This document shows positions 2,965 to 30,621 of a DNA stretch of 64,000 bases, piece by piece; within the stretch, counting starts at the first letter, position 1; each line of letters opens with the position of its first letter. Under the pieces are notes generated by a model. The model searched no databases, had not been told where the DNA came from, and saw only the letters and a list, made by a program, of their open reading frames with translations. The stretch lies in the UHGV virus genome UHGV-0240017. One strand, 5' to 3'. The DNA comes from a virus. The translations under genes were made by a program, and so were the position numbers.

Positions 2965-3975
2965 TTACGTTAGCATCCCTATAAATGCGACACCCGCCGC
3001 CAAATACGCAGGGACAGATTTAAATAGGTCTGAGCCGTCCTTACGAATGTAAGAACGCGTCTCGTAGAATTCTTTACGCGCCTCAGCCCGTGACTTCGCT
3101 TCCAATTCCTGTTGCTTGAATGCTAAAGTCAATCGCTCCTTTTCTAAAGCCATGCTCTGTAGTTGTTTCTTGTGTTCCAATTCTAGCTTGTCTTTTGCCG
3201 AATCCAAGCTTTCTAATTTTTCTTTGTACTGCTCCTCTAAACGCTGCTTAATCTCAAAGAGACCGGGAACCGCTTCTTGCCATCGAAACGCGTCAGCCGC
3301 TGCCTCATCCTTAAATAATCTAAACGGTGAAGTAATGTCGTCAAATTCAAAATGAATCATTCGACTGCCTTCCACCCTCGTTCCACCTCCTATTATCATG
3401 TAAACGCCCGGTTCATAATAGCGTGACGTTATTGGTTCGATTTTCATTTTCGTACCGTAGAAACGTAGCCACCGATAATTGTCAGGCTCGTCGTAGCGCT
3501 GCACAACAACAACACCCAATGTAAATTCAGTGCGCTCACCTCCAGGGCGCATAGTTGGGGGTTTACTATCTAAGCGTATCGGTGTTGTTGAGAAAGCAAA
3601 GCCTAATTGCTTTAGTACAACCAAATCTCCTCGCAGCAACGCACCAACATCGTTTACTGCATACTCTAACGTTACCTCCCCTTTTTCTTTCAATTGGTCG
3701 CAAAAGCGAGAAAACTGTTTTCCCGGCATCAGTTCAGCAAACCCATTGAGATTCGCACATCTTCCGTATGATTGATACGTCACGTAAACGATAACCCCAT
3801 GCTCATCAGCGGGGTTTTTCGAAGCATTTAAAATAAAGCTACCGCCACTGGTTTCAGTGACGTGGATAGGCACGCCAGTGTTATTTTCAAACGTAACAAG
3901 TTTCCTCAATCCAGACGTTTGACATAACGAGCGTTCAGAGATACTGGGCACCACATCAATATCAAGACGTTTCAT
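2965..3975 (-). CDS. hypothetical protein with C-terminal coiled coil and hydrophobic C-terminal anchor
   Basis: ATG start; C-terminal ~90 aa rich in heptad-like E/K/L/Q, ending in hydrophobic VPAYLAAGVAFIGMLT. Confidence 0.65.
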   Translation of the reverse strand: MKRLDIDVVPSISERSLCQTSGLRKLVTFENNTGVPIHVTETSGGSFILNASKNPADEHGVIVYVTYQSYGRCANLNGFAELMPGKQFSRFCDQLKEKGEVTLEYAVNDVGALLRGDLVVLKQLGFAFSTTPIRLDSKPPTMRPGGERTEFTLGVVVVQRYDEPDNYRWLRFYGTKMKIEPITSRYYEPGVYMIIGGGTRVEGSRMIHFEFDDITSPFRLFKDEAAADAFRWQEAVPGLFEIKQRLEEQYKEKLESLDSAKDKLELEHKKQLQSMALEKERLTLAFKQQELEAKSRAEARKEFYETRSYIRKDGSDLFKSVPAYLAAGVAFIGMLT

Positions 3976-4072: not shown

Positions 4073-4087
4073 TAATAATATCTATCC
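4073..4087 (-). promoter_or_regulatory. weak copy of the ATAATATCTA promoter-like motif upstream of 2965..3975
   Basis: TAATAATATCTATCC between the 4158..6452 terminator and the next minus-strand gene; resembles the 10953 and 19208 motifs. Confidence 0.3.
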
Positions 4088-4157: not shown

Positions 4158-6452
4158 TTACTTACCAGCAGCAGCTTTGCCTTCGCCAGCAACGTTACCT
4201 GCTACACCACCTTCGGTTTGTTTCTGACCGTTCTGTTCAACAGAAACATTGTAAGCCAGTTTTTCTTCAACCAGTTTGGTGATGCCTTTAACCCAGATCA
4301 GACCAGTGATCGGGCAGTGGCAGATGTGCGCGTTGCGCGGCTGTACGGCCAGCTCTTTAGAGGTAGAACCGTTACGCTGAATGTTGATGTTAGTAACCAT
4401 GATCGGAGACCAGAAGTGGTTACCCCAGTTCAGCACGTTGTAGGAACCATCGTCCGCAGTCGGAACTTTCAGGAACCATTGCAGACGACGAGTCCAGGAA
4501 CCGTCAGCTGCGTTGTAGATACGCCAGCGGTCATCGTTGGTGGTGATCACTTCGTATTCGTAGCGATCGCCCAGCAGACGTTGGTCACCTTGTACCAGCA
4601 GCAGCATGGATGCAGTCGGTTCGTCGGTTGCAATAACAACCTTCGGCAGAATGTCCGGATCGGCAGTGTACAGACGCAGCGCAGGAATGAAGCGAGATTC
4701 CTGGATAGCCTGAGTTACCTGATTACCGATACGCTGTACCAGGCCCTGACGAGCGTTGATCAGTGCATCTTTGGTATCCAGGGACTGTACAACTTTATCA
4801 ACGTTGTAGTCAGACTCTTTGAACCACGGAGCAACCCAGTGACGGCCCAGGCCACGAATGGCCGGTTTGTCCCACGGAGTGATCATGCTTGCAGCAGCGT
4901 TACGTACCGCTTCGGTGTAAGACAGCGTCTGAGTGATAGCCAGCTGTTCGTTACGGATGTTAACTGCGGAAATCAGGTCGTCCAGACGTTCGGTATCGTC
5001 GTATTCAACGCCAACCGGAGACTTGGTCAGAATCGGAGAACCGTATTGCAGCTTGTAGTTTTCTTGTTCCCAGATTGGGTCGAGCAGCAGACCCTGGGTA
5101 CGACGGTTTTCGTTGGTACGAGTACCATCGAAGCGCCAGCCGATCAGTTCAAGTTTCAGATTTTCCAGGACAGCTTTGCCGGTACCAGTCTTGATATCAA
5201 CTTTGTTACCGGTAGCGTCGTACAGACCTTCGATTTCCAGTTTGTGACCAGCAATGTCAACTTTACCACCGAACTGACCGGTAGTGAACAGAGACATGTT
5301 GATGGTGATCACGTAACGCAGAGTGTAGGAGTTCTGTTCCAGTGTTTTCAGAGCCGGAATAGCTTCGCCTTTCCAGTCGGTAGTTTTCGCGTTCAGAGAG
5401 AACGCAGTACGACGGAATTGCAGTACCAGCTCACGGCCATCACCTTCAGCAGGACGCTGGAAGGTTGCGAACTGCATGTCACGAACGTGCAGTTTAATGA
5501 ATTTACCTGCTTTTGCATCTTCAGCCGCTTTACGTACGGAAATCAGCAGGCTGCCCAGAGCACAACCCGGCGCGATTTCATCAGTTTCGTCGTAACCTTC
5601 GATGACGATACCCGGATGCGCAGACAGCTGGAACAGGTTCAGAGTGTCTTTAGCAAAACTCAGGTAGTTAGTCGGGTACGGAGGTACACGGCCCAGGCGA
5701 ACAGATTCGTTCGGTACCAGATCTTCGCTTACGAAGTATTCCGCGTTTTCACCGGTTTCCATTACGTAAGGAACGATGTTGATCGCTTCGTCCTGGAGAA
5801 CGGTGTGGTCAGTCAGCGCTTCGTGCAGGTTACGACGATGATCTTCAACAACATCTTTGCTCAGCAGTGCGTTCATTACACCACGAGAAACGGTGGTCAC
5901 TTTGGTACGTACGGTAATACCAACATCGTTGGTGTCAACAGTGATGGTCGGGAACAGAGTCTCAGCGAAACGAGACTGGGTTTCCAGAGCACGTACGTTC
6001 AGCGTCCAGGTCAGACCCAGGTTTTTGTCGTAGTCTTTGTTGGTGTAGTATTCCTGAGCGACAACCATACGCTCTTTGCCCCAGTCGCCGTTACCAGCTT
6101 GGGAACCAGGAATCGCAACGTCCAGGTTAAAACGGCTATGGAATTCTGGCTTAGCGTATTCTTGCGCTACTTTTTCTTGCAGGTCCATACCGTGACCAGC
6201 AGCACCCAGAATCATTGCAGAAGCAACTTCCGCAGCGTGGGACATTTTCTTACCGCCAGCAAACGCGTTTGCGTAGTGCTGTGCAGCATCGTCACGCAGG
6301 GTACCAAAAACTTTCGTGTTGCTACGTACAGACTCACCAGCAACGATGGTGTTCCACATTTCGCCAGCAGTGTTGTTACTAATGACGCTTTGTACCAGCG
6401 AGTTACCAGCTTGTACGAGTTTCTCCAGATTAGAGATTCGGGTATCTTTCAT
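4158..6452 (-). CDS. highly expressed major virion structural protein, probably major capsid protein (764 aa)
   Basis: AAGGT Shine-Dalgarno and ATG; antisense strand stop-free over the whole gene (strong codon bias); size matches phiKZ-type capsid proteins (~750 aa, from memory); strong terminator. Confidence 0.6.
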   Translation of the reverse strand: MKDTRISNLEKLVQAGNSLVQSVISNNTAGEMWNTIVAGESVRSNTKVFGTLRDDAAQHYANAFAGGKKMSHAAEVASAMILGAAGHGMDLQEKVAQEYAKPEFHSRFNLDVAIPGSQAGNGDWGKERMVVAQEYYTNKDYDKNLGLTWTLNVRALETQSRFAETLFPTITVDTNDVGITVRTKVTTVSRGVMNALLSKDVVEDHRRNLHEALTDHTVLQDEAINIVPYVMETGENAEYFVSEDLVPNESVRLGRVPPYPTNYLSFAKDTLNLFQLSAHPGIVIEGYDETDEIAPGCALGSLLISVRKAAEDAKAGKFIKLHVRDMQFATFQRPAEGDGRELVLQFRRTAFSLNAKTTDWKGEAIPALKTLEQNSYTLRYVITINMSLFTTGQFGGKVDIAGHKLEIEGLYDATGNKVDIKTGTGKAVLENLKLELIGWRFDGTRTNENRRTQGLLLDPIWEQENYKLQYGSPILTKSPVGVEYDDTERLDDLISAVNIRNEQLAITQTLSYTEAVRNAAASMITPWDKPAIRGLGRHWVAPWFKESDYNVDKVVQSLDTKDALINARQGLVQRIGNQVTQAIQESRFIPALRLYTADPDILPKVVIATDEPTASMLLLVQGDQRLLGDRYEYEVITTNDDRWRIYNAADGSWTRRLQWFLKVPTADDGSYNVLNWGNHFWSPIMVTNINIQRNGSTSKELAVQPRNAHICHCPITGLIWVKGITKLVEEKLAYNVSVEQNGQKQTEGGVAGNVAGEGKAAAGK

Positions 6453-19207: not shown

Positions 19208-19232
19208 TCACCTAGGTAATATATATCTGAAA
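19208..19232 (-). promoter_or_regulatory. phage promoter-like element, second copy of the 10953 motif
   Basis: TCACCTAGGTAATATATATCTGAAA on plus, i.e. TATATATTACC on minus, upstream of 18514..19155. Confidence 0.5.
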
Positions 19233-19246
19233 ATTATTTTAATCGA

Positions 19247-19293
19247 AAAAAAAAAGAAAAGAGAGAACCACCCCATTACAGGGTGGTTCTCTT
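19247..19293 (-). terminator. intrinsic terminator after acidic paralog A
   Basis: AAGAGAACCACCC-TGTAATG-GGGTGGTTCTCTT hairpin followed by T10 on the minus strand. Confidence 0.8.
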
Positions 19294-19309
19294 ACTAAAC
19301 AATCAGGGA

Positions 19310-20575
19310 TTATTTAGATTTTTCGTAAGCGCCGATACCGGCACTCAGGTAACCGTTCAGACCACCGGCCAGGTGTTTCTGAGTAGAAGCAATAACCTTC
19401 TCACCCAGAGACAGACCCTGGTTAACGCTGGTGATGAAACGACGGGCAGCACGTACACCTTCGGTCAGTTCCGGTTTTTCGTCGATCTTAACTTTATCGA
19501 CTTCTTTCAGGAGCTTATCGATATTATCTTCAAAGGTTTTACGCGCGCTTTCGACTTTACGATAATCCTGAACGTTTTTCTCAATCTGTTTACCCACTTC
19601 GTTGAAGAGGGCATTAATTTTGGCCAGTTCGCCAACAGACGGAGTTTTCACGCTAGTTTCAACGCTGTTTTCAGCTTCAACAAAGGTGGAGCTGAAGCCG
19701 CCTTCGTTGTCATACTCGGTTTTCACCGCCATGTTACCGAGCTTGAAGTTTTGGAGACTGTCTTGTTTGGACAGTTCGGTAAAGTCGGCTTTCAGTTTTT
19801 CAACTTTAACACCATTACCTTTGGTAACATCGGAAACCACTTCAGCAGCTTTAGCGGCCATGGCAGGCATCTTAGCGCTATAGAACGAGGAGACCTGGTT
19901 AAGGATACCTTTCAGTTTCGGAATATTATCGCCGACGAACTTGCCGTCGATAGACAGAGACTTGATAAAGCCACCAGAGATCTCATCTTTCTTCTGTTTG
20001 CCCAGCTTACGAATAACTTCATCGTATTTCTTAGCACGCGCCTGAATAGATTTACCCTGGTTGTGGAATTTCAGCCAGCGATCTTTCAGTTTGCGGCCTT
20101 GTTCTTTCAGCCAATCGAGAATACGGCCCAGGAAGGCTTTGATGTCTTCCCACAGGGATTCACGAGCAACCTGACGACGGTTACGAGAACCGTAGGATTC
20201 GTGAGCAACAGAAGAACGGTGTTCGAAGTTCCAACGAGAACGGATAGATTCCTGAGCAACGTCCAGCGCAGTCGCAGCGTCGTCCGGCATATCTTCTTCG
20301 GCGTCCATCGGTTCTTCACCGTCTTCGCCAGCACCTTCACCGTCAGCAGCAGCCTGAGCTTCATCCAGAACATCCAGCTGAGCGTCAGTTTCGTCGCCGT
20401 CTTCTGCCAGCAGTTCAGCGTCAGCGTCCAGAGCTTCGATCGGTTTGGTGTCATGCTCGATATCGGCCAGAGTGCCTTCTACGGATTCTGCTGGCAGTTC
20501 GATGCCGTCTGGAACTACAGTAGAAGTAGACTCCATAGACTCACGAGCAATTTTGTTTTTGTAGAAATTCGCCAT
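19310..20575 (-). CDS. highly expressed acidic protein, paralog A (N-terminal D/E-rich region, K-rich coiled-coil-like middle); possible head scaffold or internal virion protein
   Basis: ATG at 20575 with GAGGAAAAG SD; stop-free antisense strand (codon bias); same architecture as 20658..21929. Confidence 0.65.
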   Translation of the reverse strand: MANFYKNKIARESMESTSTVVPDGIELPAESVEGTLADIEHDTKPIEALDADAELLAEDGDETDAQLDVLDEAQAAADGEGAGEDGEEPMDAEEDMPDDAATALDVAQESIRSRWNFEHRSSVAHESYGSRNRRQVARESLWEDIKAFLGRILDWLKEQGRKLKDRWLKFHNQGKSIQARAKKYDEVIRKLGKQKKDEISGGFIKSLSIDGKFVGDNIPKLKGILNQVSSFYSAKMPAMAAKAAEVVSDVTKGNGVKVEKLKADFTELSKQDSLQNFKLGNMAVKTEYDNEGGFSSTFVEAENSVETSVKTPSVGELAKINALFNEVGKQIEKNVQDYRKVESARKTFEDNIDKLLKEVDKVKIDEKPELTEGVRAARRFITSVNQGLSLGEKVIASTQKHLAGGLNGYLSAGIGAYEKSK

Positions 20576-20657
20576 TTTAAGCTTTTCCTCTAAGGGGAAC
20601 AATACGTTCCCCTGATGATTTATTTCAAGAACTGTACGGAACTACGAATCTAAATGA

Positions 20658-21929
20658 TTATTTAGATTTTTCGTAAGCACCGATACCAGCACCCAGGTAG
20701 CCATTCAGACCGCTAATAACGGTGTTAGCAACATAGCTAACTGCGCGGTTCAGGGTCTGGTAGTTCTTAACAGACCAATCGGCAGCTTGACGTGCGTTAC
20801 GCAGGCCATCCCACTTGCTATCGTCTTTTTCGTTGTTCAGCGCCTTAGCAGCATTCTCAGCAGCCTGTTGCAGCTTCACGATTTCAGAATCGTAAGCACG
20901 GAAATCTTTCAGTACGGCTTCGAAGCCTTTACCGATTGCTTCCAGAGCAGAAGCAGCACCAGCCATTTCAGAAACAGACGGAGTTTTCACGTCTTTATCG
21001 TCAGAAGCGTCACCGGTGCTCATGAAAGCAATTGCGGTGAACTTGTGGCCGCCAGCCAGTTCTTTAGTACCAGCCTGAATGTATGCGTTGCCTGGCAGTG
21101 CCAGCAGTTTAGACGCATCGCCTTTTTCAAAATTCGGCAGAGAATGCAGTTTAGACGCTGCTTTACCGAACAGGTCTACAGGCTGATCGCCGCGCATTGC
21201 TTTGAAGGAATCGTCGTCACCCTTGCTCACAGCAGTTACAGCTTCACCGGCCTGTTTTTCCAGAGCACTGATGGAACCTTTAGCTTTACCAGCAGTAACT
21301 TCTTTCGCAATAGCGATAGAGCCAGCAGCATCGAATTTACCTTCGATAGACAGCTTGGTGATAAACCCGCCAGAGATTTCATCTTTCTTCTGTTTGCCCA
21401 GCTTACGCAGCATTTCCTGATATTTCTTCGCACGTTTCTGCGCGGTCTTACCGACGTTGAAATATTTCAGTTTCAGGTCTTTGATCTTCGCAATCACTTC
21501 TTTACAGAACTGAATGAAACGATCGTAAAGATCTTTCAGGGTTTCTTTCCAACCTTCCTGGGCAGCAGCAGTCATACCACGGCCACGACGATAGGATTCG
21601 CGAGCCAGTTTAGTACGTTCCAGGCACCAACGACGTGCGATGGATTCCTGTGCCACTTCGTGCAGGGCAACCGCTTCTTCCGGCATTTCTTCACCGTTAG
21701 CAACGGCTTCTTCCGCCTGTTCGATAGCGTCTTCAGTACGCTCGGTATCGGCAGCCAGGGTTTCACCGTCGGTTTCCAGCTGATCGAGCTGACCGTCGAT
21801 AGATGCTACGTCCGCAAGTTGGACGTCCAGGTTCTCTTCTGCCGGTTCAACGTTGCTGATACCGTCGATTACTTCATCGGCCGCTTCCATCGATTCACGA
21901 GCGGCGCGAGTTTTTGCGAAATTTGCCAT
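20658..21929 (-). CDS. highly expressed acidic protein, paralog B
   Basis: Starts MANFAKTRAARESME versus MANFYKNKIARESME in paralog A; shares KKYxEx(I/L)RKLGKQKKDEISGGFI and C-terminal GLNGYLxAGIGAYEKSK; stop-free antisense strand. Confidence 0.7.
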   Translation of the reverse strand: MANFAKTRAARESMEAADEVIDGISNVEPAEENLDVQLADVASIDGQLDQLETDGETLAADTERTEDAIEQAEEAVANGEEMPEEAVALHEVAQESIARRWCLERTKLARESYRRGRGMTAAAQEGWKETLKDLYDRFIQFCKEVIAKIKDLKLKYFNVGKTAQKRAKKYQEMLRKLGKQKKDEISGGFITKLSIEGKFDAAGSIAIAKEVTAGKAKGSISALEKQAGEAVTAVSKGDDDSFKAMRGDQPVDLFGKAASKLHSLPNFEKGDASKLLALPGNAYIQAGTKELAGGHKFTAIAFMSTGDASDDKDVKTPSVSEMAGAASALEAIGKGFEAVLKDFRAYDSEIVKLQQAAENAAKALNNEKDDSKWDGLRNARQAADWSVKNYQTLNRAVSYVANTVISGLNGYLGAGIGAYEKSK

Positions 21930-21944
21930 TTCGTTTATTTCCTT

Positions 21945-21956
21945 TGGTTATATAAC
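21945..21956 (-). promoter_or_regulatory. GGTTATATAACC palindrome, possible promoter variant for acidic paralog B
   Basis: TATATAACC resembles TATATTACC; about 20 nt upstream of the 21929 ATG. Confidence 0.3.
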
Positions 21957-21988
21957 CCAATTACACGCCCCTAGAATGAGGGGCCCCC

Positions 21989-22549
21989 TTAGGGACGTGC
22001 GATTTTCAAAAACACTGCTAACGACGAGATCATGTCGGACAACCCGTTCGGGCGCGTCATCCAGCGTGCCAGCAGTTCATGGTCTGCATAAGATAAAAGA
22101 CGTTTGCTACACTCAACAGATTGGTGAGCAGAGCCCATATTACGTACAGTACCTCGGCGACCAAACGCAGCAGCTAATAGACGCGAGCCTAATGCACCCG
22201 TCTGTTCAACATTCTTCGTGTTACGAACATCGTTCATATACGACGACAGCAAAGTCGACCACTGCCCTAACGTCACATTACGTCGCTTACCATCCAGCAA
22301 GAAATCTACACTTTCGTTATAAAACGTATTAAAGGTAAATCCGACCTGCGGATATTCGTCATATAATACCTGCTGCAATGAGTCAGCAGCCATCAGACGA
22401 AAATACGGTAAAACAACGGCAGCGGCTTCCAGCGTTTTGTGAATAACTTCGTCATCGTGTGTGTCGATTGGGTTTTTCGATAAAATCGACATGTAGGATT
22501 TAATGCGCTCTACAGCAACATTAAATTCTGGACTATCGTGCTCAAACAT
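21989..22549 (-). CDS. hypothetical protein (186 aa)
   Basis: ATG with AGGAGAGG SD. Confidence 0.7.
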   Translation of the reverse strand: MFEHDSPEFNVAVERIKSYMSILSKNPIDTHDDEVIHKTLEAAAVVLPYFRLMAADSLQQVLYDEYPQVGFTFNTFYNESVDFLLDGKRRNVTLGQWSTLLSSYMNDVRNTKNVEQTGALGSRLLAAAFGRRGTVRNMGSAHQSVECSKRLLSYADHELLARWMTRPNGLSDMISSLAVFLKIARP

Positions 22550-23512: not shown

Positions 23513-24619
23513 TTAAAGAACTGGCTGAGCGCCAGAGCGATACGCTTCGATGATTTTATTCACATCGGCGCTACCAGACTTCGATTTACTAAAGTCAGAT
23601 TTATCGAGTTCCTGAGAGCCATTCTGACCACGGGTATAAATAGTGACACGATTCCAGGTGGTGTCCACAACAACATAGTAGACAGTCAAGGTGTCTTTGA
23701 ACACACGCTGACGGATATTGAAATCGTCAAATTCGCCACCTAGCTGTGCGGTCAAACCGTCGATAGTGTCTTGAGAAACCACCATAACGGAAGAAGCGTT
23801 ATTGATAGACGGTGCCAAAGACAGCAGACCAGACAGCCAGTTACCGTTCTTCTTCTCCATCATCTTACGGTAATAACCGGACTTATCACGATAACGGTTC
23901 TTACGATATTCTTCTACCAGGTCGTTACAGAACGCAATGTCTTTTACGTAACCCAACGCACCAACGCGCGCACGCAGCCAACGTTCCCAGAATGTTTTCG
24001 TCTGGTCACTGAACGCAATCAGCGTTTCAATTTGTTCGGTCGGTAAGGATTTCACATCCAAACGTAGGCGCATTGGGAGTTCGACTTTATTACCGTCACG
24101 TTCGAATGTTACTGAGAACATCTTCCCGTTGGACAACCCTTCTTGATCGAAAAGCTGTTTAATCGGATCACCTTTCCCGCCACTGACCGAACCTTTTGAT
24201 TCCTGAGCAACACGACGAGCAGATTCACCGACCGCAATGCCGATTTTATCGTATGACGGTAAACCATAACGGGCAGACTCGCCGACCGCAAGCGCTGCTA
24301 AGCGGGAACCGCTGCGGACTGCATTATCGAGCGCACTACGACGTGTGCTGACCTGATCCAGTGTACCGATAATATCGACATCCGGTACACCAGTTAACAG
24401 GGAGATAGCCGTTAATTGGTTTCCTGCCAGCAAAATTTGGATTTTCTCCAGAATTCCCGGAAGGTAATCTAAACCCAGCAGGCTTTGTTCGACTAAGGTA
24501 ATGTGCTCGTTATAGAGCACTGAGTTAAATTCCTCCATCGACTCCGCACGCGAACGAAACAGCATGGGAAGTCTGGAGAGGAAAGAGACAACGCTTGTCT
24601 CAAACGTTTTTTCTAACAT
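23513..24619 (-). CDS. hypothetical protein (368 aa)
   Basis: ATG start; divergent from plus-strand gene at 24646. Confidence 0.7.
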   Translation of the reverse strand: MLEKTFETSVVSFLSRLPMLFRSRAESMEEFNSVLYNEHITLVEQSLLGLDYLPGILEKIQILLAGNQLTAISLLTGVPDVDIIGTLDQVSTRRSALDNAVRSGSRLAALAVGESARYGLPSYDKIGIAVGESARRVAQESKGSVSGGKGDPIKQLFDQEGLSNGKMFSVTFERDGNKVELPMRLRLDVKSLPTEQIETLIAFSDQTKTFWERWLRARVGALGYVKDIAFCNDLVEEYRKNRYRDKSGYYRKMMEKKNGNWLSGLLSLAPSINNASSVMVVSQDTIDGLTAQLGGEFDDFNIRQRVFKDTLTVYYVVVDTTWNRVTIYTRGQNGSQELDKSDFSKSKSGSADVNKIIEAYRSGAQPVL

Positions 24620-28950: not shown

Positions 28951-30621
28951 TTAATCAATCAATTTATTGAACTTCCCACCTTTCACAAGTGGGTTGGACT
29001 TGGCACGCTTCAACACCGTTGCCATAGACCCTGCGGCCTTGCACCACATGTTAATCATGTTTGCACTGTGCGCAACAGAATCCCAGACATTACGGTCAGG
29101 GTTTAACACCATCATCGTGGTCAGCTCACGACCGTGAAGGTTAAAGTTCTCCCCTCGCGTCACTTGGTCTTTAAACGCCTGTTCCATCGCCTGCCATTTC
29201 TGACTGTCGACGCCAGAACGTGACTGACGCGCCATCTCTTTCAGCGTTTTTACAACCTGATCGACACGTTTTTCCAACACCTTATACTTGTCTAGCGCAG
29301 TATTCGCTACACCATCCGAGATACCACTACGTGCCAGTGTAATCAGACATGCCAACAGCTCACGGTAATCCCCGTTACTTAAACTCAACTCCTGGCGCAT
29401 CATCTCCAGGTTTGTTGTGGAGCCAAAGAAAGAGTTAGCGCCGATTGATGCAATCATCCAACCGTTGTCTAATTCACGTGTGGTATAACCGAGAAGCTCA
29501 ACCTTGTCTTTCACACGCAAAATTGGGCCCGGGCTACCTTTCTGTCGACCGAACTCCGTAGCAGAATATTCAATTCGACCGTTGATCTCACCTAACGCAC
29601 GGACCAGATGCACCGCAGCAACTTGGTTCTCTTGCGACGTCCCTACCTTCGGGTTATTTGACAGGTAGTAAGTTTTGATGTCTTTCAGCGACTGGTCTAA
29701 GTCCTGAAGCGCACCGCCAAAACTGTCAAGAATCGTGCTCATTAAGTTGAACTGAATATCTGACGGAATGTTCACCCCAGCACGTTTCACATCAGGCGGC
29801 AAACCGTTATAGACTTCCTCAGCAACCCCGAAGTCAAATACACCGTAACCGATGTTCGTCCGTAGCAGCGTATCTAGCAGATCCTGAATAACCTGCAGCT
29901 CATTCTGACGACGTTTAAGGTGGTTCTTAAACGTATCGATAAACGGCGATTTCCCTAACGCGGCGGCGAGTTTATTTAGAAACTCTTCAGCTTCCATGTT
30001 CACAAAAACATCGTCAGCCAGCGAAAGAGATAACTCCAGGTTGCTTAACTCGCTGTCTTTCAAACCTTTTGACAGTACCAGATAAACTTCTTTCAGTACG
30101 GTTGTTTTCAGGCGCTCTGTGAAAGGAACATCGGCCAACTTCTCTTCCAGTTTCTCGCGATAGTCGTTCCCGTCAATATTCGCAGCACCTGCAAAAGGAA
30201 CGGCGTTGCTGATAATCCAACTGAGGATTTTCATTATCCCCATCATCACCATCACGATAAGGCTAATCTTACCAAAATTGGCGTAAGACTCTAATGCCAC
30301 CACCGTTTCTTTCTGGTGTGTTTTGGAATAATTCGACGTCAGAACACTTTGTACCGCCTTCGGGATTGTGCCAGGACGCAACGATTCAGTCGCTACAGCA
30401 ACATCACGGTTCAACCCTGCATTACGTATTTCCCGTAAGATCGCTTCAATTTGCGCGATAAGGCGAGAACCGTAAATCAGGTCTGCTTCATTACGTTGCA
30501 TGTAGAGATTGAGTTGGCTAACAGAATCGATGCGTTCTTCCATGCGCTGTTCTAACAGTGCAGGAAGTTCATCGAGTTTCCATTGCGGTTGCGCAATGTT
30601 TGCTGTCATCTCCATACTCAT
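28951..30621 (-). CDS. hypothetical protein (about 556 aa) with internal hydrophobic segment
   Basis: Track ORF 28951..30684 starts with GTG; ATG at 30621 overlaps upstream stop (ATGA). Confidence 0.6.
   Translation of the reverse strand: MSMEMTANIAQPQWKLDELPALLEQRMEERIDSVSQLNLYMQRNEADLIYGSRLIAQIEAILREIRNAGLNRDVAVATESLRPGTIPKAVQSVLTSNYSKTHQKETVVALESYANFGKISLIVMVMMGIMKILSWIISNAVPFAGAANIDGNDYREKLEEKLADVPFTERLKTTVLKEVYLVLSKGLKDSELSNLELSLSLADDVFVNMEAEEFLNKLAAALGKSPFIDTFKNHLKRRQNELQVIQDLLDTLLRTNIGYGVFDFGVAEEVYNGLPPDVKRAGVNIPSDIQFNLMSTILDSFGGALQDLDQSLKDIKTYYLSNNPKVGTSQENQVAAVHLVRALGEINGRIEYSATEFGRQKGSPGPILRVKDKVELLGYTTRELDNGWMIASIGANSFFGSTTNLEMMRQELSLSNGDYRELLACLITLARSGISDGVANTALDKYKVLEKRVDQVVKTLKEMARQSRSGVDSQKWQAMEQAFKDQVTRGENFNLHGRELTTMMVLNPDRNVWDSVAHSANMINMWCKAAGSMATVLKRAKSNPLVKGGKFNKLID

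Follow-up and report, generated by a model that had tools for sequence, protein, structure and literature searches.

A tandem pair of probable internal head proteins in a jumbo phage genome, with matched leader peptides and a conserved intercistronic hairpin

Two neighbouring genes at positions 19310–21929 of a 64,000-nucleotide stretch of the virus genome UHGV-0240017 (the window) raise the question of what a phage makes from a tandem pair of strongly codon-biased paralogs with acidic N-terminal regions. An earlier note, written from the sequence alone, had likened them either to the scaffold of the prohead or to internal proteins that are ejected, of the kind processed by the prohead protease in phiKZ-like heads. 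Both genes lie on the minus strand, with gene B (20658–21929, 423 amino acids (aa)) transcribed first and gene A (19310–20575, 421 aa from its ATG) second. On the sequence evidence, the two proteins are with near certainty members of family PF12699 and orthologs of gp53 (B) and gp54 (A) of phage SPN3US, and it is very probable that they are the major internal head (ejection, E) proteins of this phage.

A and B align over their full length with 36% identity (BLASTP, E 9e-59), which bears out the tandem paralogy that the earlier note had claimed; its coordinates and lengths were also correct, and it did not mention that both genes are on the minus strand. The open reading frame (ORF) of A extends upstream to a TTG, and homology together with an AGAGGA ribosome-binding site favours the ATG as start. 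The proteins begin with MANFYKNKIARESME (A) and MANFAKTRAARESME (B) and then run into acidic stretches that cover residues 16–104 of A (D+E 34.8%, K+R 1.1%) and 16–90 of B (D+E 32.0%, K+R 1.3%). Their basic blocks, KKYDEVIRKLGKQKKDEISGGFI and KKYQEMLRKLGKQKKDEISGGFI, follow the common pattern KKY.E..RKLGKQKKDEISGGFI. The N-terminus, the D/E-rich region of ~100 aa and the basic block are thus shared as described. The C-terminus is shared as well (GLNGYLSAGIGAYEKSK in A; pair consensus GLNGYL(S/G)AGIGAYEKSK), with the small correction that the S reported for both proteins is G in B.

The family assignment is strong for both members. Against a gathering cut-off of 27 bits, PF12699 (phiKZ_IP, phiKZ-like phage internal head proteins) matches B with 244.2 bits over residues 44–414 (profile 2–387 of 387) and A with 195 bits over residues 42–411, and PHROG 2497, annotated as internal head protein, matches B at E 5e-148 and A at E 9e-120. 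The family model, run against all six-frame ORFs, found no third paralog in the window, and Pfam and PHROG scans returned only PF12699 and jumbo-phage internal-head PHROGs, with no match to T4 internal-protein families. By tblastn, B-like genes occur in 64 phage records. Apart from the distant Vibrio phage pVa-21, these are SPN3US-like Salmonella phages and jumbo phages of Erwinia and Cronobacter, all with two copies, and the paralogs stand in tandem in 63/63 close records. B is matched best by Erwinia phage Asesino, at 73% aa identity, and by SPN3US, at 68%, and megablast of the locus against the phage collection gave no record covering at least 80% of it. Closer copies are found on assembled contigs, with an identical B protein on unannotated Logan contigs and gene pairs of 96–98% identity on IMG/VR contigs of 220–225 kb (L005–L007), which places the window in a lineage of ~225 kb inside this group. 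In SPN3US the syntenic genes encode two tandem internal head proteins, gp53 and gp54, in the same gene order as in the window. Both members resemble their SPN3US orthologs more than they resemble one another (B shares 68% identity with gp53 and 36% with A), and the 115 full-length homologs divide into 53 gp53-like and 62 gp54-like sequences.

Orthology extends to the processing sites. In SPN3US, both gp53 and gp54 are processed by the prohead protease gp245, with cleavage following A-x-E (PMC10052503). Cleavage was mapped in gp53 at ARE-12, AQE-95 and AQE-125 and in gp54 at AQE-124 and ARE-137, the last site in each case being the maturation site, which exposes (E)GWKETLKDLFER and (E)SLWDDIK, respectively (PMC10052503 Table 2, Fig. 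3). Every one of these sites is in register in B, with ARE-12, AQE-95, ARE-111 and AQE-125|GWKETLKDL, and in A, with ARE-12, AQE-109, AHE-126 and ARE-139|SLWEDIK. In the alignment of the 115 homologs, four A-x-E|S sites fall in the same four columns of both paralog groups. The motif is also enriched relative to shuffled sequences, A-x-E-S being observed four times in A (0.34 expected, P = 0.0004) and three times in B (0.37 expected, P = 0.005), and A and B have the highest density of A-x-E-[SG] among all predicted proteins of the window.

Cleavage at the maturation sites would divide both proteins into parts of opposite charge. The predicted propeptide of B (residues 1–125; 21555–21929, minus strand) has a mass of 13.7 kDa, a net charge of -19 and a pI of 4.23, and that of A (residues 1–139; 20159–20575, minus) 15.1 kDa, -27 and 4.07. 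The predicted mature proteins are basic, with 298 aa, 32.0 kDa and pI 9.31 for B (residues 126–423; 20661–21554, minus), modelled as a helix-rich bundle, and 282 aa, 31.3 kDa and pI 9.44 for A (residues 140–421; 19313–20158, minus). These masses and isoelectric points are close to the SPN3US figures. A gp245 homolog with 81% identity, which retains the sequence around the catalytic Ser153 (VCFSLRA) as well as the AQE|S site of autocleavage, occurs (L035, L036, L038) on contigs that carry the 96–98% identical copies of the gene pair. By analogy with SPN3US, we consider it highly likely that A and B are cleaved at the predicted maturation sites, and the suggestion in the earlier note that they are processed by the prohead protease fits the gp245 sites kept in both proteins.

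An AlphaFold2 model of B, built on a 71-sequence alignment (pLDDT 84.5, pTM 0.83), consists of long helices (34–77, 84–100, 119–175, 319–365 and 372–417) and a beta-rich insert at about 176–315, in which the paralogs diverge most (identity ~0.1–0.2). The propeptide helices are modelled with pLDDT 80–91, and cleavage sites 95, 111 and 125 fall at helix ends or in a low-confidence linker (101–120). The model suggests that processing strips away part of the helix bundle and thereby forces a rearrangement, which would fit the disappearance of an inner shell at maturation (see below). A Foldseek search of the BFVD gave 106 matches at E <= 0.001, including proteins of 201phi2-1 and PhiPA3 and entries named internal head protein, with predicted structures on both sides of the comparison. 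Searches at the level of the PDB found no solved structure of a PF12699 domain.

The codon usage of the pair points to very high expression. The effective number of codons (ENC), calculated for the genes of the window, is 35.8 for A and 36.9 for B, and is comparably low only in the 764-aa major capsid gene (33.0) and a 615-aa gene (36.1); the next lowest value is 40.1 and every other gene is at 45 or above. The claim of the earlier note that such bias is otherwise confined to the 764-aa and 615-aa genes is thereby upheld. The preferred codons, CTG, CGT, GGT, TCT and ACC, are enterobacterial optimal codons. The 615-aa gene (58169–60016, minus) is the ortholog of SPN3US gp22 (51% identity, 615 versus 617 aa, 67.2 versus 67.1 kDa). 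It was identified through the literature and SPN3US gp22, since the protein has no Pfam or PDB match and belongs to PHROG 8316, of unknown function. With this orthology, the four genes of lowest ENC in the window are the orthologs of the four most abundant prohead proteins, namely the capsid protein, gp53, gp54 and gp22. Long plus-strand ORFs lie antisense to three of the strongly codon-biased minus-strand genes (19283–20593, 436 aa; 20787–21974, 395 aa; 58076–60025, 649 aa); they have no family matches and are almost certainly artefacts of the codon bias.

What these proteins may do is best seen from their relatives. SPN3US gp53 and gp54 form “paralog family A” (pfam12699), and a virion contains >600 copies of either protein (PMC5694885). 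When the protease is deficient, they remain uncleaved and build a T=1 inner shell in “mottled” capsids; this shell is gone on maturation, whereas the proteins stay in the head (PMC7552025). We envisage the following course of events, with cleavage, copy number, inner shell and ejection taken over from the orthologs. A late unit of two genes, made up in order of a conserved 5´ element, B, a hairpin beside the second ribosome-binding site, A and a terminator, would be expressed at a very high level. The precursors would carry a leader of 12–15 residues and an acidic propeptide of ~110–125 further residues, whose helices, according to the model, may pack onto the basic helical body. At the prohead stage, they would enter under the T=27 capsid shell, where those of SPN3US form the T=1 inner shell. 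A gp245-type protease (MEROPS S80) would then cut after A-x-E at residues 12, 95, 111 and 125 of B and 12, 109, 126 and 139 of A, and cutting at several sites would both fragment the acidic propeptide and free it. Hundreds of copies of the mature basic domains (31–32 kDa, pI ~9.4) would remain inside the DNA-filled head, in probable association with the DNA, and on infection would probably be ejected with the genome.

The last step follows other members of the family. In phiKZ, gp93, gp95 and gp97 enter the host together with the DNA, and an association of gp93 with the genome persists inside the early infection vesicle (bioRxiv 10.1101/2024.03.24.586471); in phage Goslar, injection has been demonstrated for gp58, which is present at ~2150 copies per virion (bioRxiv 10.64898/2026.04.21.720040). 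On this analogy, ejection of the mature domains of A and B is likely, if clearly less so than their cleavage. Several points weigh against the reading of A and B as processed and ejected head proteins. One phiKZ member of PF12699, gp162, is not ejected and remains in the head (bioRxiv 10.1101/2024.03.24.586471), and for gp53 and gp54 of SPN3US the literature assumes ejection. Cleavage, abundance and ejection of A and B are drawn by analogy from the SPN3US orthologs, at 68% identity, or from phiKZ and Goslar relatives that only profiles can detect. The window does not include the protease gene, and site AHE-126 of A has His at X, where the third site of SPN3US gp54 reads AQE; cleavage there is plausible from the sequence, since X is described as any residue. 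Finally, the role of PF12699 proteins has been called “a key unsolved mystery” (bioRxiv 10.64898/2026.04.21.720040), which leaves the DNA-binding step a conjecture. That the mature domains act mainly by binding or neutralising DNA appears on balance doubtful, and charge neutralisation or genome organisation as their molecular role is speculative.

The earlier note had left two options side by side, and of these the internal, ejected proteins are supported by the PF12699 and PHROG 2497 matches, the SPN3US orthology and the kept cleavage sites. The other option is a classical scaffolding or core protein, which shapes the prohead, is degraded by the protease and is fully gone from the head before or during DNA packaging. 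The acidic N-terminal part and the long helices of A and B make a scaffold-like composition. In SPN3US, moreover, the orthologs are the ordered T=1 inner shell of protease-minus capsids and are synthesized with the kinetics of the capsid protein (PMC7552025), and in the 243(am) mutant, incorporation of gp53 and gp54 is lost alongside unstable heads (PMC5694885). Against this stands the fate of the same orthologs, which are kept in mature virions as fragments of 30–31.5 kDa at >600 copies each; nor are the conserved cleavage sites of A and B spread over the protein, being confined to its N-terminal third. The part of scaffold seems instead to be filled by gp22, a scaffold candidate abundant only in protease-minus proheads (PMC7411985), the ortholog of which is the 615-aa protein. 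A scaffold in the classical sense is thus very unlikely, and this half of the earlier proposal fits less well. A core-like role in the prohead is nevertheless possible for A and B by analogy, because gp53 and gp54 form the T=1 inner shell in protease-deficient capsids.

A further idea concerns the propeptide after cleavage and would add to, rather than replace, an internal head role for the mature domains. The cleaved N-terminal fragment, e.g. residues 13–95 of B, could act as a capsid-lining cement that bridges capsomers inside the shell, as fragments of phiKZ gp93 and gp162 do, while the helical domain is located elsewhere. This is attractive in that N-terminal, protease-bounded fragments of the same family, gp93 (residues 14–84) and gp162 (19–134) of phiKZ, have been resolved lining the inner capsid surface (PMC11297242), that peptides of the gp53 propeptide are still detectable in purified SPN3US heads (PMC10052503), and that both ends of such a fragment, ARE-12 and AQE-95, are conserved sites. 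The shape is at odds with it, since the propeptide here is strongly acidic, with a predicted long helix (34–77, pLDDT 80–91) in a bundle, whereas the gp93 fragment has the shape of an extended, S-like arm. No sequence similarity to the deposited phiKZ capsid chains was detectable with either the protein or the family profile, and literature searches found no high-resolution map of an SPN3US-type capsid. We regard the cement role as improbable, yet far less so than a scaffold. Abundant proteins outside the virion, e.g. cytoskeletal or associated with the phage nucleus, could likewise be codon-biased, high bias alone indicating just high expression, and their likeness to head proteins would then be compositional only. 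Such a reading is effectively refuted by homology, namely by the full-length profile matches to PF12699 and PHROG 2497, by orthology and synteny inside a head-gene cluster, and by the identification of the orthologs by mass spectrometry in purified heads.

Two observations appear to go beyond what is known from SPN3US. The first concerns the leaders, residues 1–15 of B (21885–21929, minus) and of A (20531–20575, minus), which evolve in concert across phages. Both paralogs were compared in 16 genomes with 20,000 permutations of the genome pairing. Over the first 15 residues, the identity between paralogs was 0.874 within a genome and 0.696 when permuted (sd 0.027; 0/20,000 as high), as opposed to 0.297 and 0.288, almost no excess, over the remainder of the protein. 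Co-changes in both paralogs recur across separate clades, with V/V, I/I and M/M at position 5, L/L, V/V, I/I and A/A at position 9, and loss of Ala2 from both paralogs together. In a relative with 95% identity (L008, IMGVR_UViG_3300045988_095954), the leader tracts of the gp54-type and gp53-type genes are identical at 45/45 nucleotides (locus positions 3849–3893 versus 2501–2545), compared with 30/45 in the window; from the sequences, this is a recent short gene conversion limited to the leader. Elsewhere, selection seems to keep the two leaders matched over time. In SPN3US and three other genomes (L012, L014, L019), they are identical at 15/15 residues with only 8–10/14 identical codons, against a background of 0.52–0.56 elsewhere in the proteins, and it is this combination of identical residues with synonymous differences at the background rate that argues for maintenance by selection. 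The leader motif is on no other ORF in the window. The SPN3US literature notes the identical N-termini in SPN3US and proposes a role like that of the T4 capsid targeting sequence (PMC5694885), and the SPN3US papers do not describe concerted evolution or gene conversion of the leader. Gene conversion was also considered for the 16-aa block RKLGKQKKDEISGGFI, which is identical at 45/48 nucleotides, and was rejected: its 13/16 identical codons are not clearly over a background of 0.65, and there is no excess of within-genome identity across genomes (0.66 versus 0.64).

The second observation is a hairpin between the genes. The same layout of elements surrounds the pair in 16/16 genomes, the proteins of which are only 55–73% identical. 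The intercistronic RNA hairpin (AGGGGAAC-GUAUU-GUUCCCCU; 20593–20613, minus) is situated 1 nt upstream of the ribosome-binding site of A and is not followed by a U-tract. It is present in all 16 genomes as a perfect, GC-rich stem of 7–10 bp (-12.6 to -19.1 kcal/mol), situated 0–1 nt upstream of an invariant AGAGGA, which precedes the start codon (ATG) of the second gene by 7–10 nt; in the window, this Shine-Dalgarno sequence (20586–20591, minus) is 10 nt before the ATG of A. The stem occurs in 11 distinct sequences across these genomes, all fully paired, so that the stems covary, and shuffled sequences yield a comparable hairpin 1.8% of the time. The count was anchored on the structure, a MAFFT alignment having set some sequences out of register. 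A scan found this to be the sole hairpin of its kind adjoining a ribosome-binding site in the window. Its most likely candidate roles are stabilisation or processing of the mRNA or tuning of the translation of the second gene.

Other conserved elements lie at the two ends of the unit. Upstream, a hairpin element of ~38 nt (GCACGTCCCTAAGGGGGCCCCT..CTAGGGGCGTGT; 21963–22000, minus) extends across the gp52 ortholog's stop codon and precedes the ribosome-binding site of B by ~30 nt; it is near-identical in the 16 genomes and occurs once in the window, and an Rfam search of the locus, this element included, gave nothing at threshold. Between it and the ribosome-binding site of B is the palindrome GGTTATATAACC (21946–21957, minus), represented by GGTTATAACC or GGTTAACC at the same place in all relatives. 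Across genomes it takes the form GGTTATA(TA)ACC, followed by the ribosome-binding site, and is a candidate promoter or 5´-UTR (untranslated region) element. As a recurrent promoter motif, GGTTATATAACC was rejected, with one exact copy in the window and near-matches barely over shuffle expectation. A scan for sigma-70 promoters found fewer sites than in shuffled sequences and is uninformative, which is no surprise in a phage with RNA polymerases of its own. Downstream of A, an intrinsic terminator (19246–19292, minus) consists of a GC-rich stem of 13–14 bp and a T-tract (-24.2 kcal/mol, z = -4.4), and a hairpin with T-tract is found at this position in 16/16 genomes.

After this terminator comes CAGATATATATTAC (19216–19226, minus), which recurs at 10961–10971 (minus). 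These are two nearly identical intergenic copies of a motif, (T)TTCAGATATATATTACCTAGGTGAG, placed just after terminators, and GATAGATATTAT variants are found near 4075, 46462 and 50226 (minus). The motif resembles the consensus AAATATATATTAT of the early promoters of the AR9 virion RNA polymerase (PMC5312081) and is also found after the gp54 terminator in related phages. Among the neighbouring genes, the gp52 ortholog directly upstream of the pair (21989–22549, minus, 186 aa) matches PF25618, PhiKZ_gp91 vertex-binding protein, with 29.7 bits against a cut-off of 27, and its last codons and stop codon make up the 5´ arm of the invariant hairpin element before B. As in SPN3US, a dihydrofolate reductase (DHFR) gene (17068–17604, minus) is located downstream, ~1.7 kb from the pair, and is recognized by PF00186 on an identical Logan contig; its TTG-start ORF of 241 aa probably over-extends a real gene of ~178 aa. 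Sites for gp245 are kept in other head genes as well, with ATE-79|S and ALE-111|S in the gp47 ortholog (28951–30621, minus) and AQE-140|S in the gp50 ortholog (23513–24619, minus), and the major capsid protein (4158–6452, minus) has AQE-134|YYTNKD where SPN3US has ATE-130|YYTNKD. For SPN3US gp50, and possibly gp47, the RefSeq start codons disagree with the numbering used in the papers. Many homologs, among them P0002, P0061, P0066, P0069 and P0076, are on contigs of ~220–227 kb in Salmonella, Shigella and E. coli isolate assemblies (NCBI, ENA). This suggests that this lineage of supposedly virulent, nucleus-forming jumbo phages is often sequenced along with clinical enterobacterial isolates or carried by them, perhaps through pseudolysogeny or a carrier state.

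Comparison with known systems places the pair closest to SPN3US gp53/gp54 (Seoulvirus). The two pairs agree in tandem order and length (425/419 aa versus 423/421 aa here), in the MANF...ARES leader, acidic propeptide and basic mature part, in nearly identical mature N-termini (GWKETLKDL and SLW(E/D)DIK), in the flanks, with gp50–52 upstream and DHFR and head genes downstream, and in the intercistronic hairpin by the ribosome-binding site and the terminator. They differ in that B is just 68% identical to gp53, that the leaders, which match each other fully in SPN3US, differ at 4/15 residues here, and in genome size, 240 kb for SPN3US as against ~220–225 kb for the lineage of this phage. The phiKZ proteins gp93, gp95, gp97 and gp162 are of the same Pfam family and predicted helix-rich fold and have N-terminal prohead-protease motifs of the type small-residue-x-Glu, including a site at about residue 12–13 (SLE-13 in gp93), and their gene region, like that of the pair, adjoins a gp91-like vertex-protein gene. 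They are present in high copy in the head, for which the codon bias serves as a proxy here. Their similarity to A and B is detectable by profiles only; phiKZ has 5–8 paralogs at ~100–200 copies each instead of two dominant ones, cleaves S/A/G-x-E where the motif here is strictly A-x-E, and is the only phage for which an ordered “inner body” is reported. E. coli phage Goslar, an enterobacterial chimallivirus, has very abundant PF12699-fold proteins (gp53–gp58) in a syntenic head-gene region; one member is dominant over five minor ones, in contrast to the balanced pair here, and Goslar is absent from the BLAST-level relatives of B. The T4 proteins IPI, IPII, IPIII and Alt are a functional analogy without sequence or family relationship. 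They are basic proteins packaged with the DNA and ejected, with a common N-terminal targeting peptide (CTS) of ~10 residues that is removed by the prohead protease after Glu (PMC5694885, PMC7411985). The propeptides of A and B are longer (125–139 residues) and would be cut at several sites, and their copy number, judged from the orthologs, would be higher.

In conclusion, by analogy with its relatives, the pair would be the internal cargo that a nucleus-forming jumbo phage of enterobacteria carries in the largest amount. It adds no new kind of system and is largely explained by the known SPN3US proteins. As a divergent ortholog pair (68–73% identity to characterised phages) in which all mapped cleavage sites are kept, it strengthens the SPN3US processing map. 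The concerted evolution of the leaders and the covarying hairpin by the ribosome-binding site appear to be two small new observations. The matching of the leaders by concerted evolution points to a common targeting receptor. One tentative possibility is that the leader of 12–15 residues is a capsid-targeting or docking signal for a single shared partner (gp22, gp243 or the protease), kept matched by selection and short-tract conversion, and that the covarying hairpin fixes the A:B ratio. Both leads could aid the engineering of protein packaging into, and delivery by, jumbo phages. If the proposal is true, leader and propeptide would form a portable tag by which foreign proteins could be brought into chimallivirus heads and delivered to the early infection vesicle.

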